Positions 22,666 to 28,019 are shown, counted from the first letter of the stretch. The stretch is 28,091 bases of DNA from Candidatus Thorarchaeota archaeon (GCA_003345555.1 PRDJ01000047.1:1-28091), one strand, 5' to 3'. The notes: generated by a model from the letters alone, not told the origin. Translations and numbers: made by a program.

Positions 22666-24099
22666 CTAAGTCAGATAGCTAGCTAGGTCCAAGTCATCAG
22701 TGTCTACATACCAGAAGTCATCCTCTCTTTTCCAGTGCCGCGCCAAATCCAGCATAGAGCGCGACCCCTTTTGGACAAGGGTCATGATGGGCAATACCGA
22801 CTCTACTCCACGTTTGTGCTCCAGTGAACGAAAGTACTGGTAGTACTCAACCTGATGTTGACTTGGAACCTGTATCCAAAGTATTACTCCTCTCGAAGAC
22901 ACAAAATACAGCGCAGCTGGAACGAGGGGCATTAGTGACAGAATGCGTTCTGTCCAATCTGGTTTGCACACTACCTCGAAACAGAAATTCCCCGAGAGGC
23001 CAATTCCTGCGAAGACCGTGTATGGCAGTATTACACGACGCTCGATCAGTCTGTGCGTAGAGCTGATGACCTGTTTTGTGTCTACGTCCCATCCTTTTAT
23101 TCGAAGACTCTGGCTGACGGTCTCTGGAGAAGCACGACAATCAGACCTTAGCTCGGAGGTAACAGCAAAGTCTAGAGGTTGAAACTCCTTCCTTCTACCG
23201 CCGCATGAGAGAACATGAAGGGTTGACCCGGCCTTTTCGACGGGCGCCGCTTCCGGAGGCTGGCGGATTACTTCAGAAATCGACCATGTGCCGTTGTTGA
23301 GAAGGGCGAGATTTGACTCAGCACCCATAGATGACTGAACATGAAGGCTTACATAATCAAAGACCGAGCCAACAAGCGCACTTGCACTTGAACGAAGAAC
23401 TGAAAGCTCCTGCTCGCCCCCGGGAAACATAAGAGAAACGTAGCCCAAGTCGCTTACTGCAGTCTTGAGAATGCTTCTAGTGAACGGGAATCCAGCCATG
23501 CCTGTCTCAATTGCAGCCCAGTCAACTCCTTCAGACAGCTTGAAGAATAGCATTACAGACTGGATACCAAAAGCTGTGTTGTCTGACAGGCAACTGAATC
23601 GTACGGCATGTTGGTCCTTCAGACGAACGAGGGATGACGAAACTGTCTTGGGAGCAATCTCCAAGGTCCTTGCGATAGCATTCACGGTCGATAGTGGGCT
23701 TCTGGCCAGACAAGAAAGTACTTGCAGGTCTCGATCATTGATCGGAGTCTCGTCATTCAGGAACGCAAAGCTGTAGGCAGACTTGATGGAATCGGAAGTA
23801 TGAAGGTTGTATTTCTTGAGCGTCTTGAGATTGTCGATGATTTTCTTCATGAAGTGTTCGTTGACGGGTGCCACGGTCGGATCGGTCGGCGACTTAGCAA
23901 ACTCGGGGTTTTCCTTCAGATGCTCAACAACGCGCTTGGCGTCTTCAAGCGATACAGTTCCAGCGAAGAGAGCAAGATACAGGCGAATTGCCTCGAGATA
24001 GAATCGGGCAGATGGATCATCCACCGATGGAATCAAGTCATCATATGGTGTGGATACCTCTGGTAAGGCGCTCTGGCCCGGTACCAAATCCCTAGGCAC
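22666..24099 (-). CDS. Tandem (double) Lrp/AsnC-like wHTH regulator with extra N-terminal helical domain
   Basis: DRDLQVLSCLARSPLSTVNAIARTLEIAPKTVSSSLVRL followed by a RAM-like alpha/beta segment, and a second unit FQPLDFAVTSELRSDCRAS...RLIERRVI. Confidence 0.7.
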   Translation of the reverse strand: MPRDLVPGQSALPEVSTPYDDLIPSVDDPSARFYLEAIRLYLALFAGTVSLEDAKRVVEHLKENPEFAKSPTDPTVAPVNEHFMKKIIDNLKTLKKYNLHTSDSIKSAYSFAFLNDETPINDRDLQVLSCLARSPLSTVNAIARTLEIAPKTVSSSLVRLKDQHAVRFSCLSDNTAFGIQSVMLFFKLSEGVDWAAIETGMAGFPFTRSILKTAVSDLGYVSLMFPGGEQELSVLRSSASALVGSVFDYVSLHVQSSMGAESNLALLNNGTWSISEVIRQPPEAAPVEKAGSTLHVLSCGGRRKEFQPLDFAVTSELRSDCRASPETVSQSLRIKGWDVDTKQVISSTHRLIERRVILPYTVFAGIGLSGNFCFEVVCKPDWTERILSLMPLVPAALYFVSSRGVILWIQVPSQHQVEYYQYFRSLEHKRGVESVLPIMTLVQKGSRSMLDLARHWKREDDFWYVDTDDLDLASYLT

Positions 24100-24153: not shown

Positions 24154-25242
24154 CTACGCAAGACTCTGCTTTCCAGTCATTCGTAAGAGAGCTTTCTCTA
24201 ATGTCTTTCTGGTAGCAGATTCTTGTGCTATGAATGTGAGTGTTTTCGCAGAGCTCTTCGTAATCTGTATTAGCGATGACGATAGTGCGAGCCAGTTCCA
24301 GAGTGATGGCAACTCAATACTCAGAACCGAAAGACTGCGTCCCGAGACAACCCGCGCCTTTGGCAATGTGCCTGCTTGGATGTGAAGCATTCGCGAAAGT
24401 GGGGATTCCTGAGAGCTCGAATCGACACATAAGACTGCCTTGTGAATGAGACCAATATCGCTGAGAAACACGTAAGGTAAGGTCATCTTGCTCCGAATCG
24501 AGTCCAGACGCCTTCTGAGCGTTCTTTCGGGTGGGCAACGCAGACTTAGGCGGCTCATGTATTCGGTCACTTCTCTGACTGAGGCATGGTAGCTGTCTTC
24601 GAGGACAGACAGGACTGCCAAGTTCTCCACAGTACATGCGCTTGGCTTGCTCAGTTTTAGTGAATTCATGGCAGGAAGCACATCAGCATAATCCTTCATG
24701 GCCCCAGTGCTGACTTCGAACCGGAATCCTTCGTCAAGAGTCCATTGCCTGCCGTCAAAGAGCCCCATGTTCAGATGATTTGAGACCTCGGCTGCTACAT
24801 CATACCTGAGTCCAAAGTCACTTGTGCGATCGTTTGACCAATCTATGAAGCGGGCGGGAAAGGGCGGATCACGACCGAGAGACGTGACTGCCTCAAAGTA
24901 GACAGCTGCGTTGGTTCCAGATGTCATCACGGATCTTGACGCTAGTGTTACTTGAGTATTTGAGTCAAGCCAGGCACAGAATGCTTTGAGCTGATCAGAT
25001 GTCTCTGAGGCCTGCGCCCAGCCAAACACCAGACTCATACCTACCTTTCCATAGTCAACACTGGATTTGACTCTCAGATGGTTGGTACGGACCAGCTTAT
25101 GCCAAGTCTGGTTTACCATTGGCCGACTGACTTGAAGGTCCTTCGCCAAGTCGCTTTGGCGCATGCCCGGATTCATCAATAACCGTCTTAGAAGCCTCAA
25201 ATCCGCTGGTTCGAGCTTGTTCAAGTCCATCACTCTCGGCAC
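24154..25242 (-). CDS. Tandem (double) Lrp/AsnC-like wHTH regulator, paralogous in architecture to 22666-24099
   Basis: ADLRLLRRLLMNPGMRQSDLAKDLQVSRPMVNQTWHKL...VDYGKVGM, and a second unit NLAVLSVLEDSYHAS...ERTLRRRL...LSDIGL. The start may be ATG 25230. Confidence 0.7.
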   Translation of the reverse strand: MPRVMDLNKLEPADLRLLRRLLMNPGMRQSDLAKDLQVSRPMVNQTWHKLVRTNHLRVKSSVDYGKVGMSLVFGWAQASETSDQLKAFCAWLDSNTQVTLASRSVMTSGTNAAVYFEAVTSLGRDPPFPARFIDWSNDRTSDFGLRYDVAAEVSNHLNMGLFDGRQWTLDEGFRFEVSTGAMKDYADVLPAMNSLKLSKPSACTVENLAVLSVLEDSYHASVREVTEYMSRLSLRCPPERTLRRRLDSIRSKMTLPYVFLSDIGLIHKAVLCVDSSSQESPLSRMLHIQAGTLPKARVVSGRSLSVLSIELPSLWNWLALSSSLIQITKSSAKTLTFIAQESATRKTLEKALLRMTGKQSLA

Positions 25243-25431
25243 CGAACAGGTTGGCCGATTGTAAAGTTAAACGATGCATTTTCTTATCTTTTTCGCACTC
25301 ACTCGAAGAGCGGTATGACGGGTATGGACTGCTCCCGCGTCATAGCTCCCTATCTTTGGCTTCCTTGAGGCTTCTTGCCCATCGTGGCGACCCTACAAGT
25401 TCTTAATCTGGAATGCGGATAGATTTCCTAT

Positions 25432-25450
25432 AGTTTCAGTGCCTGAAACT
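25432..25450. promoter_or_regulatory. Perfect 8-bp inverted repeat, candidate operator or hairpin
   Basis: AGTTTCAG-TGC-CTGAAACT in the divergent intergenic region between the Lrp-like pair and the peptide ORFs. Confidence 0.45.
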
Positions 25451-25606
25451 GCCGGAGTGGCCTCTACAGGGAGCACCATCGGGCCGGACCGAGCCCAAAT
25501 GGGCACCCGCAAGGCCGTCATAGGTGGGACCGTGTAGAAGACATTCCTGAGTATCGATGTCCAAGAATGCGAAGCTAAGGAGGTGACAAGAATTAGCGCA
25601 GATCGA

Positions 25607-25729
25607 ATGCGGACAATCTACGAGAGTATGACCAACAACCGAGTCGCTCTCAGATTGTTGTCGATCGGAATAGTGCGTGGCATATCGTCTGTTGTACAGC
25701 CGCCCTGTGAAGACCCTAGTCCGTTCTAG
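25607..25729 (+). CDS. Putative 40-aa peptide ending PPCEDPSPF
   Basis: MRTIYESMTNNRVALRLLSIGIVRGISSVVQPPCEDPSPF*. A perfect SD (AAGGAGGTGA) lies at about 25577-25586, but the start codon is uncertain (in-frame GTG 25583, ATT 25592, ATG 25607). Confidence 0.4.
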   Translation: MRTIYESMTNNRVALRLLSIGIVRGISSVVQPPCEDPSPF

Positions 25730-25857
25730 ATAGAACATGGATAGCACGACTAGTGCCTCTCATGGGTCTTGGCTGTGCCGCGGACGTCTTGTCGCGCAAT
25801 TGCATTGGACATTGGGTACTCGAGCTAGGCGCGTCGGAGAAAGGAGGACACAGAGAG

Positions 25858-25902
25858 ATGCTTAACCCACACCCACTATCACCAGATCCAACCCCGTGGT
25901 AA
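25858..25902 (+). CDS. 14-aa micropeptide MLNPHPLSPDPTPW, copy 1
   Basis: SD AAGGAGG at 25841-25847, ATG 25858, TAA 25900-25902. Encodes the same peptide as copy 2. Confidence 0.75.
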   Translation: MLNPHPLSPDPTPW

Positions 25903-25943
25903 ACGTGGCAGTCACGTTCGAACCAGAGGGAGAGGGAAACAAA

Positions 25944-25985
25944 ATGGAACACTCGGAACGAAAACACAACAATGGTACCTGTGGC
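25944..25985 (+). pseudogene. Degenerate 5' remnant of the 85-aa gene
   Basis: ATG GAA CAC TCG GAA CGA...AACACAACAATGGTACCTG resembles ATG ATA GTA ACA GAA AGA...AACAACAGCAATGGAATACCCTG at 26124 onward. The frame is lost after the shared ER. Confidence 0.4.
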
Positions 25986-26038
25986 ACAGTGTTGCCTAGG
26001 TCAACATTGGAGCAGTCATTCAAAGGAGGAGAGTACAC

Positions 26039-26083
26039 ATGCTTAACCCACACCCACTTTCACCAGATCCAACCCCTTGGTAG
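26039..26083 (+). CDS. 14-aa micropeptide MLNPHPLSPDPTPW, copy 2
   Basis: SD AAGGAGG at 26023-26029, ATG 26039, TAG 26081-26083. Differs from copy 1 only at CTA/CTT, CCG/CCT and TAA/TAG. Confidence 0.75.
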   Translation: MLNPHPLSPDPTPW

Positions 26084-26123
26084 AAAAAACGAATATACCT
26101 CATGAAAGAGGAGACGAAAACAA

Positions 26124-26381
26124 ATGATAGTAACAGAAAGAATTGGAACAACAGCAATGGAATACCCTGCCATGCCTGAAACAGGTAGAGAAGTTGATGC
26201 GCTCAACGACCCGGAGATAGTAAGGCTTACTGCGCTAAACCTCGAATTGGCAGTCAAGAATCTAATGTCATCCAAGGCACCACCTGAGTGCCTCGTCCTG
26301 ACAGCAGATATATGCACACACAGACTAATGGCTATACCAACTGCCGATGGCGATGTCAAGGTGCTCGTTTTCGAATCGTGA
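26124..26381 (+). CDS. 85-aa hypothetical alpha/beta protein
   Basis: SD GAGGAG upstream of ATG, natural composition, and a helix followed by three beta-strand-like segments. Confidence 0.75.
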   Translation: MIVTERIGTTAMEYPAMPETGREVDALNDPEIVRLTALNLELAVKNLMSSKAPPECLVLTADICTHRLMAIPTADGDVKVLVFES

Positions 26382-26609
26382 GCGAATCCCGGACGTGTAG
26401 AGTTCGGACTTCGCATCAAACGATTCGTGTCGAGCACCTGGACAGAGCCGCAGGAGTGTAAATAGTAGGCGAGTGTACGTTGTCACGCAGAGCCCATCTG
26501 ATTGTGCGTCGGAGTCCCATCCTTTGGGGCACCAGCCTTGAGCCTGTAGAAGGAGAAGGACACGGAAAAGCCTACTCAGCGCCCGGCAGAGAACCAAGAT
26601 GATAATTTC

Positions 26610-28019
26610 GTGAATGATTTCTCGGATGAACAAGCAATCGAAATCCGAGAACAACAATGTCGTGAGCCCAACAATCGGGAAAATCGACAGACTACTTCTA
26701 ACCTCAGACGTTCCCTCAAGTCAGTGTTCTCGTGGCAGAATTACTCCGTATATCTAGTCACATCGTGGGTTTTCAGTGCATTCGTAGTAGTCTGGTCTTT
26801 ACTGAATCTCTATTTGCGTGCAATTGGTTGGGACTACTTGCAGATAGGGCTCGTATTGGCGATTGTAAGCACCACATCCGCTTGTGCAAGAATCGTTGGG
26901 GGATATGTTGGCGATGCGGTCGACCGCAAGAGACTGTCAATACTTGCTATGCTTATGGCTGGCGTCAGTCATCTGACAATAGGACTTTTCACTGATTTTG
27001 CGGCGGTATTGCTGGGATTGATGATTTACGCAACAATGGACATAGCAAAGGGGGGTTCCTCGGCTTACATCATGGACAACATTCCCCAGAAGGACAGTGG
27101 GTTAGCCCTCTCATTGTTTAGTGCCGGGAGATCATTTGGTGTATTGACCCTGATTCCGTTTGGAATTCTGGTACCAATCATAGGCTTTTGCTTAGCCATG
27201 AGATTTTGTTTTGTCACGGCCGGATTGCTCTTTTTTGTCTGCACGGCGGCACGTGCATACCTCCTGACATCGAGCGTTCAAAAGGAATCCGCCCCCAATG
27301 TTCCACTCTGGAAGGATTTCATTCGCAAGAACCGCTATGCGGTCAGTTTGCTTTTCAGAATAATGCCAGGTGTGCTTGTTGTTGTTATTCTCGATTCATT
27401 TAGTGATGCCCTTTTTCAATATGGAACGTTGCTCTACACCAATGAATACCTTGGCGTCTCGATATCGGGCATTACGATCATCGTGTTAGTCTCCCTTGTC
27501 GTGTCAGTACCGCTCCTGCTGAAAGTCGGCAGATTCTCAGATGAGAGGGGGGTCAGAAAAGCAGCATTGATTGTATACGGTGTGATGCCCGTATGTGCGA
27601 TTCTCATCATACTGGCACCCGTTTTCCCATATTGGGTCCCGTCGGAGATTGTCGAAATTGCAGAGCGCGAGGTAACCGGATTCGGAGCCGTCTTTTCAAT
27701 GCCGTTCCTGGCATTTGTCCTGAAGCAAATCAACGATACGCTTTGGAGCCTCGTACTCCTGACGCTGATTCAGAAGAGACTCCCGAGGCAAGATACCGCC
27801 AAGATACTTGCAGTATTCTGGTTCATTGTGTATCTCTTCATGTCTCTAGGTCCATTTGTCGGCGGTCTTCTGTTCACATACGCGAACCCATCACAGCTGT
27901 TCACCGTGGTCCTCATTCTCAACCTCGTCATCTTGGTTTCCATTGCTCGTGCCGGATTGGTAGGACGAAACGACGAACCAGCAGAACCAAGGCAGACAAT
28001 ATCTGCTTCCCGACAATGA
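26610..28019 (+). CDS. MFS transporter
   Basis: About 12 TM segments, motif A GGYVGDAVDRK, and a second-half repeat GRFSDERGVRK. Confidence 0.93.
   Translation: MNDFSDEQAIEIREQQCREPNNRENRQTTSNLRRSLKSVFSWQNYSVYLVTSWVFSAFVVVWSLLNLYLRAIGWDYLQIGLVLAIVSTTSACARIVGGYVGDAVDRKRLSILAMLMAGVSHLTIGLFTDFAAVLLGLMIYATMDIAKGGSSAYIMDNIPQKDSGLALSLFSAGRSFGVLTLIPFGILVPIIGFCLAMRFCFVTAGLLFFVCTAARAYLLTSSVQKESAPNVPLWKDFIRKNRYAVSLLFRIMPGVLVVVILDSFSDALFQYGTLLYTNEYLGVSISGITIIVLVSLVVSVPLLLKVGRFSDERGVRKAALIVYGVMPVCAILIILAPVFPYWVPSEIVEIAEREVTGFGAVFSMPFLAFVLKQINDTLWSLVLLTLIQKRLPRQDTAKILAVFWFIVYLFMSLGPFVGGLLFTYANPSQLFTVVLILNLVILVSIARAGLVGRNDEPAEPRQTISASRQ

Follow-up and report, generated by a model that had tools for sequence, protein, structure and literature searches.

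What is the function of two neighbouring open reading frames (ORFs), each of only 45 nt, that encode one and the same peptide in the genome of a Candidatus Thorarchaeota archaeon? The window that we analysed, i.e., the whole 28,091-nt stretch PRDJ01000047.1:1-28091 (assembly GCA_003345555.1), carries both on its plus strand: copy 1 (25841..25902) comprises a Shine-Dalgarno (SD) sequence AAGGAGG at 25841..25847 and an ORF at 25858..25902 that encodes MLNPHPLSPDPTPW and ends in TAA, and copy 2 (26023..26083) comprises AAGGAGG at 26023..26029 and an ORF at 26039..26083 that again encodes MLNPHPLSPDPTPW and ends in TAG. A preliminary description of this DNA had taken them for micropeptide genes under purifying selection, invisible to ORF callers, and for part of an undescribed archaeal peptide module. 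Comparison across relatives shows the two ORFs to bear the marks of genuine translated genes, whose predicted product is an acidic, Pro-rich micropeptide of 14 residues, and shows the module, as judged from genomes across the phylum, to be confined to one Thorarchaeota family. As to function, the reading that we favour, although we rate it a little below an even chance, is that the micropeptide acts in trans, docking through its C-terminal Pro-aromatic carboxylate on a partner encoded at the same locus.

Two micropeptide genes and their homologues

The two ORFs are offset by 181 nt, their AAGGAGG-to-ATG gaps are 10 nt (copy 1) and 9 nt (copy 2), and they are identical at 42 of 45 nucleotides; the three differences (CTA/CTT for Leu, CCG/CCT for Pro, and TAA/TAG at the stop) are all silent, just as the preliminary description had it. 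The further claim that the flanks diverge holds for the SD-to-ATG spacers and for the downstream DNA, which align no better than chance, but it has to be qualified for a faint, decayed remnant behind copy 1 (25926..25985, plus strand): here an SD-like run and an ATG at 25944 resemble 26108..26126, i.e., the SD and first codons of p85, the gene for an 85-residue protein that follows copy 2. This SD-plus-ATG remnant behind copy 1 shows that the original tandem duplication covered about 181 nt, the start of p85 at one time among them, and that all of the duplicated unit except the SD and the ORF has decayed. The remnant is also the start of a frame of 54 codons, which runs into copy 2 in another reading frame; as read from the alignment, this frame is not conserved in the sister genome.

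The window alone leaves some room for a chance ORF, or for a repeat of DNA or RNA that has no coding function: it offers just three differences, and the simulated probability that three random substitutions would spare both the peptide and the stop is 0.015, a value that is suggestive alone and becomes decisive only together with comparative data. The 45-nt pattern did not arise in any of 100 shuffles of the window, and the source genome (2.28 Mb, 82 contigs) contains copies 1 and 2 and no further copy.

Homologous loci were found by way of p85. This gene has a single match in 69 of the 76 genomes of the window's own family and none in 224 genomes that represent 29 further families of its phylum; being family-restricted and found as a single match, it could be used as an anchor, and 67 homologous loci were fetched with it. 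Counts of the micro-ORF refer to the 66 genomes, source genome included, in which the DNA upstream of p85 is present, and these represent 16 genera. An SD-led ORF of 11–15 codons lies just 5' of p85 in every one of the 66, at the position of copy 2; copy 1, together with its flanks, has orthologues in three genomes of the same genus. The SD is of the GGAG type and stands 7–10 nt before the start, which is mostly ATG and in a few cases GTG or TTG; all three stop codons occur, and where the start can be assigned, the distance from the micro-ORF stop to the start of p85 is 27–61 nt. Loss of the SD, start or frame, which was looked for as evidence against a coding function, occurs in none of the 66 loci.

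The encoded peptides are diverse, with 62 distinct sequences among the 66 loci, and agree in how they end. The penultimate residue (position −2) is Pro and the last residue (−1) is aromatic in 66/66 (Trp in 45, Phe in 19 and Tyr in 2); before these, Glu occurs at −3 in 42 loci, Pro at −4 in 48, and Asp or Glu at −5 in 32. The ending first proposed, DP[ST]P[WF]-stop, is therefore not strictly kept in full, and the part that is kept is P-[WFY]-stop, usually after [DE]-P-x or x-x-E. Pro (25%), Asp (14%), Glu (12%) and Gly (8%) make up much of the body, whose mean net charge is −2 and in which Cys recurs, and the conserved Pro and Asp/Glu positions employ several synonymous codons.

That SD, start, frame and ending are preserved in 66/66 loci while the nucleotides diverge argues against a chance ORF or non-coding repeat, as do the lack of Rfam matches (no family in 25200..26700) and the purely silent divergence of the old paralogues considered below. 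In so far as sequences can decide the matter, the comparative data refute this explanation, and we give it next to no credence. Since gene callers skip ORFs this short, a module conserved in 66 genomes is missing from annotations, as had been foreseen for the window; literature searches found no paper describing it, which supports its standing as a module new to the archaeal literature.

Selection on the peptide and its mode of action

Does selection reach beyond the invariant ending? In genus g2 (loci L030 and L031), two paralogues with unrelated flanks and different starts (TTG vs. ATG) encode an identical 13-mer. They differ by 12 nucleotides in 9 of 12 codons, and all of these differences are silent, including a Ser that is specified by TCA in one paralogue and by AGT in the other; such an all-silent pattern was recovered in 0 of 200,000 random-substitution trials. 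Because these paralogues differ only silently, selection acts on the amino-acid sequence, the body included, and the original proposal that the constraint lies on the peptide and not on the DNA is sustained both by this case and by the 66 loci. Duplicates within a genome encode peptides that are identical or one residue apart in g2 and in the four genomes of genus g1. Gene conversion is likely in g1, because the flanks are orthologous and silent differences are few, but the duplicates of g2 are old paralogues that have diverged without conversion. A third genus (g5, L118 of genome G287) has two nucleotide-identical copies encoding MDPYAPDPAPF; these reflect either a recent duplication or an assembly artefact and are uninformative.

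Between lineages, the micropeptide changes quickly. When nonsynonymous and synonymous differences are pooled over 14 pairs of close orthologues, one of which compares paralogous copies, their ratio (pN/pS) comes to about 0.5 in the body and falls to 0.18 over the final three codons. In one pair of genomes the SerRS proteins are 3% different and the p85 proteins 2%, and the micropeptides differ at 6 of 13 residues (46%). Fast change between lineages together with identity within a genome would be expected of a ligand that has to fit a co-evolving partner, the number of independent events being small.

According to the action in trans that we favour, the micropeptide would be released, and its Pro-Trp/Phe/Tyr end, with a free carboxylate and preceded by acidic residues, would anchor it to a partner that the locus also encodes, with specificity conferred by the lineage-specific body. 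The preferred partners would be reg1 and reg2, two Lrp/AsnC-like proteins encoded divergently, which would bind the peptide through their RAM domains; p85 is an alternative partner, and export of the peptide by the major facilitator superfamily (MFS) transporter encoded downstream would be possible and not required. Peptide binding, and competition by (or cooperation with) s44, a small protein of the same locus that is identically tagged, could then feed back on transcription of the divergent operon. RAM domains of characterised Lrp/AsnC members bind free amino acids, aromatic ones included, and we prefer these partners because an aromatic residue at a C-terminus presents them with the same two groups, side chain and carboxylate; that Trp, Phe and Tyr are interchangeable at the last position is as expected for an aromatic pocket. 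Rather doubtful, in our estimation, is a more specific version, in which the micropeptides are lineage-specific ligands ('pherotypes') that the RAM domains of the two double Lrp/AsnC-like proteins recognise by the Pro-aromatic carboxylate.

Several features of the loci would favour an action in trans: the identity of the whole peptide between old paralogues, the retention of upstream duplicates with no intact gene after them, the private tag shared with s44, regulators that evolve fast (these and the MFS transporter evolve about twice as fast as SerRS), and neighbours that are modelled as winged helix-turn-helix (wHTH) plus RAM proteins. The tag was sought throughout the 2.28-Mb genome: only three stop-to-stop frames end in [DE]P.P[WFY]-stop, and they are the two micro-ORFs and s44. 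Hence a genome-wide C-terminal tag system, which we considered, was rejected, all three frames lying in this locus; that the motif is private to the locus suggests a dedicated reader encoded nearby.

Other observations weigh against a trans-acting ligand. Binding of a partner by the micropeptide is a step that we infer, the argument from old paralogues draws on one duplication event, and tests of covariation with the neighbouring proteins point to no partner. When micropeptide distances were compared with those of reg1, reg2, p85, the MFS transporter, EndoIII, LLM and sub-domains in Mantel and partial Mantel tests, no partner stood out, and partial r was low and much alike for all of them (−0.02 to 0.22), control protein included. 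The absence of the MFS gene from one genome that has the rest of the module weakens the version in which the peptide is an extracellular signal. In addition, the composition of the body matches residues that are known to slow ribosomes lacking eIF5A (PMC5499558), invariance is limited to the two residues that precede the stop, and the ORF is always placed just 5' of p85, often with a hairpin beside the p85 SD; the last two features would also be expected of an ORF that acts in cis by pausing.

If the ORF acted in this manner, ribosomes would pause at or just before termination on Pro-aromatic-stop and so alter access to the ribosome-binding site of p85, the peptide itself being a by-product. 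The pause would possibly depend on aIF5A or on polyamines, and the paused ribosome may open a hairpin or an anti-SD pairing. We take this to be a serious possibility, though not a probable one. It would account for constraint that is strongest on the penultimate residue, the last residue and the stop, i.e., nearest the peptidyl-transferase centre, and the penultimate residue is key in termination-arrest peptides such as the 14-residue PepNL (PMC11890864). Likewise, a Pro-Pro-Trp ending makes the upstream ORF of AZIN1 a sensor of eIF5A and polyamines (PMC8705083), and the pauses that occur without eIF5A, at termination and at Pro/Gly/Asp motifs (PMC5499558), match the Pro/Asp/Glu/Gly composition of the body. 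The fixed position on the same strand, 27–61 nt before p85, points in the same direction, and a hypervariable body is expected if only composition and the C-terminus matter.

Folding of the spacers between the micro-ORF stop and p85 is also relevant to pausing. Of 61 distinct spacers, 33 form a structure that is more stable than those of 95% of their shuffled versions (mean z −1.8). A hairpin or an anti-SD pairing lies between the stop and the p85 SD in these; about half of the genera have a hairpin and several have no such structure. The typical hairpin has 4–7 bp and a GC-rich, GCGG/CCGC-like core, begins 7–16 nt past the micro-ORF stop and ends 1–15 nt before the SD, and the 24 hairpins examined have 20 different stem sequences. 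The SD itself is paired in the window (spacer minimum free energy −5.0, z −3.9) and in a few other genera. The counterpart of the hairpin in the window is only this weak anti-SD:SD pairing, predicted on the plus strand at 26098..26113, between copy 2 and p85, where CCUC (26098..26101) would pair with GAGG (26108..26111). Among the relatives, the stems show compensatory variation (e.g., L026, L079, L082, L088 and L097), and genus g8 has a conserved UCCC 5' of the stem that is able to pair with the SD. Programmed readthrough or frameshifting into p85 was considered and rejected, since spacer lengths fall in all three frames.

Several findings are difficult to reconcile with an ORF that acts only in cis. 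Old paralogues have kept the whole peptide through 12 silent changes, which is unexpected for a loosely constrained body, on the assumption that the ribosomal tunnel is near-invariant within the family. The upstream duplicates in g1 and g2 precede no intact gene, yet they are intact themselves. The last position accepts Phe no less than Trp, which departs from the order reported for Pro-Pro-X; a hairpin is lacking in about half of the genera; and spacer length modulo 3 varies, with p85 having a strong SD of its own, GGAG(G). We know of no archaeal arrest peptide. Action in trans and action in cis are, on our analysis, not exclusive of each other.

Neighbouring genes and their bearing on function

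The conserved order of the module is reg2 and reg1 on the minus strand, followed on the plus strand by s44, the micro-ORF or micro-ORFs, p85 and the MFS transporter gene. The context reported at the outset, i.e., two divergent double Lrp/AsnC-like genes, an 85-residue gene and an MFS transporter, was correct. Its expected synteny is found for reg2, reg1 and p85 with the micro-ORF, but the MFS gene proved dispensable in at least one single-contig genome.

The ending of the micropeptide recurs on s44, a conserved small protein of about 45 residues (25579..25729, plus strand; SD GGAGG at 25579..25583) that terminates in ...VVQPPCEDPSPF-stop, the same C-terminal motif. It is strongly conserved over its whole length. 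Its probable start is the ATT at 25592, a GTG at 25583 being situated inside the SD; in L032 and L040 a stop codon comes between this in-frame GTG and the rest of the frame, and conservation is also lacking for the ATG that follows next. Most loci have an Ile codon 8 nt past GGAGG, and s44 probably begins at a non-canonical AUU, AUC or AUA. Gene finders call it in only 7 protein clusters, vs. 72 for p85. An s44 hidden Markov model profile run against 1.8 billion proteins recovered the same small clade family and repeat-protein artefacts only; since the divergent forms among them end in RDPCPF, ADSNPF or EDPNPW, the Cys of the s44 ending is not invariant. No Pfam, NCBIfam or PADLOC model matches s44.

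A micropeptide encoded in a putative operon with two other small proteins, and sharing a C-terminal tag with one of them, might also be a small stoichiometric subunit or chaperone-like partner of an assembly of p85 and s44 (or of the MFS transporter), or, given how fast it evolves, a secreted antagonistic peptide in an arms race. An 11–15-residue, disordered, acidic peptide is an unlikely structural part, however, and there is no sign of toxicity or immunity, the PADLOC matches being to helix-turn-helix (HTH) domains only; moreover, within-genome copies are kept identical instead of being diversified. We accordingly see little chance that either version is right. Co-folding, which covered reg1, p85 and s44 and was run without controls, scored 0.00, a value that counts neither for nor against any of these readings.

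The candidate partners preferred for a trans-acting micropeptide are reg1 (24154..25242, minus strand, 362 residues), which is proximal, and its distal paralogue reg2 (22666..24099, minus strand, 477 residues), which falls in the same BLAST cluster, has an extra N-terminal region, and is present wherever the contig reaches that far. The AlphaFold2 model of reg1, built with 20 orthologues (pLDDT, a per-residue confidence measure, 82), has a wHTH plus RAM-like unit twice per chain (wHTH-RAM-wHTH-RAM), the RAM fold being beta-alpha-beta-beta-alpha-beta. The solved structure that it matches best is the siroheme decarboxylase NirDL (4ch7; Foldseek E 2.6e-8, TM 0.50/0.57), and next come single-unit Lrp/AsnC regulators with a Foldseek probability of 1.0; sequence identity to NirDL and Lrp is about 12%. 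Searches of reg1 and reg2 with Pfam and NCBIfam returned no AsnC_trans_reg, AsnC or NirD-type match, and only weak MarR, HTH_24 and ArsR-type HTH matches below the curated cut-offs. The label 'double Lrp/AsnC-like' thus holds at the level of the modelled fold. Because the best structural match, NirDL, is an enzyme and is itself a fused double Lrp-like protein, reg1 and reg2 may be regulators or something else. Between the divergent genes, in their promoter region, lies a palindrome, GTTTCAG-TGC-CTGAAAC (25433..25449, plus strand), that is a candidate operator; it is perfect in the window and has variants in three congeneric genomes, and an operator conserved beyond the genus was sought in the relatives and not found.

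The alternative partner, p85 (26124..26381, plus strand, with its own SD), is a family-specific protein whose homologues are named hypothetical proteins of Candidatus Thorarchaeota in the sources and which has no Pfam, NCBIfam or PADLOC match. In its model (pLDDT 82), the first 20 residues are disordered and the rest forms a single helix on a sheet of three strands. Searches of PDB, AFDB clusters and VIA wide gave weak fold matches in the noise range (Roadblock/longin/PAS-like; Foldseek E about 0.1, VIA Z at most 6), and a search of a language-model atlas gave sub-threshold leads only. Residues 21–31 carry a conserved G-R-E-V-D-P-F-T-D-P-E, a loose echo of the acidic-Pro-aromatic tag, and Arg22 and Arg34 are invariant.

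Further downstream, the MFS transporter gene (26610..28019, plus strand) keeps its syntenic place in nearly every relative. It is gone from G236 (L108), a single-contig genome, leaving a 420-nt gap between p85 and an EndoIII-like gene; no orthologue was found elsewhere in that genome, in which the regulators, s44, micro-ORF and p85 remain. With the module otherwise intact, export by the MFS transporter cannot be required. The wider neighbours, i.e., Mer-like F420 oxidoreductases (LLM), AfpA, EndoIII-like, GT4 and SerRS genes, are absent near the locus in some genera and look like housekeeping genes in inherited synteny.

These neighbours bear on the possibility that the micropeptide is the precursor of a modified peptide or cofactor, in the manner of ribosomally synthesized and post-translationally modified peptides (RiPPs): a variable core would be joined to a conserved C-terminal recognition or reaction site, the enzymes would be encoded elsewhere or by poorly recognisable neighbours, and the product would be exported by the MFS transporter. 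Structural genes that are tiny, in some genomes duplicated, hypervariable in the body and conserved at the end are in line with this, as are the repeated occurrence of Cys in the body and the F420-type luciferase-like oxidoreductases, flavoprotein and GT4 glycosyltransferase that many loci encode within a few kb. Many bacteriocin operons have a hairpin behind the structural gene, and one is often present here too. We nevertheless consider such a precursor improbable: the Mer-like LLM, AfpA, EndoIII and SerRS neighbours drop out in several genera while the core module stays, and the MFS transporter is dispensable. Among the conserved neighbours examined there is no radical-SAM, YcaO, lanthipeptide, cyclodehydratase or peptidase gene, in agreement with the initial observation that no modifying enzyme is adjacent, and the p85 fold has no convincing match to a PqqD-like peptide-recognition element (MbnC matched at Z 5.0, within the noise range).

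Implications and comparison with known systems

A conserved micropeptide gene beside regulators, whether its product is a ligand or a leader, is known from bacteria and eukaryotes; as far as we found, Archaea have no described case in which an amino-acid-sensor fold serves signalling by ribosomally made peptides, and the mechanism may well be new to this domain. If the micropeptide acts in trans, it could be a peptide ligand for Lrp-type regulators, in a feedback or signalling circuit of Asgard archaea. If it acts in cis, the ORF would be an archaeal nascent-peptide sensor that resembles the eIF5A-dependent upstream ORFs of eukaryotes, which would be of special interest in Asgard archaea given their link to the origin of eukaryotes. 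The system is easy to test: the peptides have 11–15 residues and are cheap to synthesize, there are three candidate partners, and 62 natural variants are available.

Among the systems that we compared, the leader peptides PepNL and TnaC of E. coli cause arrest at termination, and their last two residues before the stop are critical (PMC11890864). The micropeptide genes share with them an ORF of about 14 codons that has its own SD, stands directly 5' of another gene and is constrained at its end. The bacterial leaders, however, are conserved over their full length and act on a bacterial ribosome with RF2, whereas the micropeptide body is hypervariable and any stop codon is used; here, moreover, duplicates persist with no downstream gene and the same ending occurs on a separate 45-residue protein.

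The upstream conserved coding region of AZIN1, which ends in Pro-Pro-Trp, is a eukaryotic eIF5A and polyamine sensor (Ivanov et al. 2018, as summarised in PMC8705083). The likeness consists in an upstream ORF with a Pro-rich ending and a terminal Trp followed by the stop. Archaea have an eIF5A homologue, aIF5A. The motif differs, being [DE]-P-x-P-[WFY] or x-E-P-[WFY] with Phe common; initiation here is SD-led and not by scanning, and no link to polyamines is known for p85 or the other genes downstream.

In the RRNPP systems of Firmicutes (e.g., Rgg/SHP), receptors with tetratricopeptide repeats (TPR) respond to peptides that arise by cleavage of longer, hydrophobic pro-peptides once these have been secreted, and that Opp re-imports. 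As in those systems, a tiny and usually unannotated peptide gene is divergent from a cytoplasmic transcription factor, the peptides are lineage-specific, and a transporter is near. The neighbours here, in contrast, are Lrp/AsnC-like in their wHTH-plus-RAM models and not TPR proteins, the micropeptide is a hydrophilic, acidic product of an 11–15-codon ORF with no signal sequence, and the MFS transporter is dispensable. To Lrp/AsnC proteins and to NirDL/AhbAB themselves, these neighbours bear the likeness of a wHTH and a beta-alpha-beta-beta-alpha-beta domain, modelled twice per chain; they differ in that sequence identity is about 12% and no AsnC or NirD model of Pfam or NCBIfam matches. To our knowledge, no Lrp-type protein binds the C-terminus of a peptide.

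How an ending of this kind can work is illustrated by the tip of bacterial SSB (...DDDIPF-COOH), where a pocket in the partner protein recognises both the side chain of the terminal aromatic residue and its free carboxylate. Acidic residues, Pro and a terminal aromatic residue recur in the micropeptide, although SSB is a DNA-binding hub protein with no homology to it, and the comparison shows only how such an ending can work.

Finally, the 14-residue trp leader peptide peTrpL of Sinorhizobium meliloti also acts in trans, on an efflux operon (PMC7298713). It is bacterial, with attenuation through Trp codons and an antibiotic-dependent ribonucleoprotein, and resembles the thorarchaeal peptide in neither sequence nor context; what the two have in common is a 14-residue, Trp-containing peptide of leader type, and peTrpL provides an instance in which the product of a cis-acting ORF has a function in trans that is linked to an exporter.

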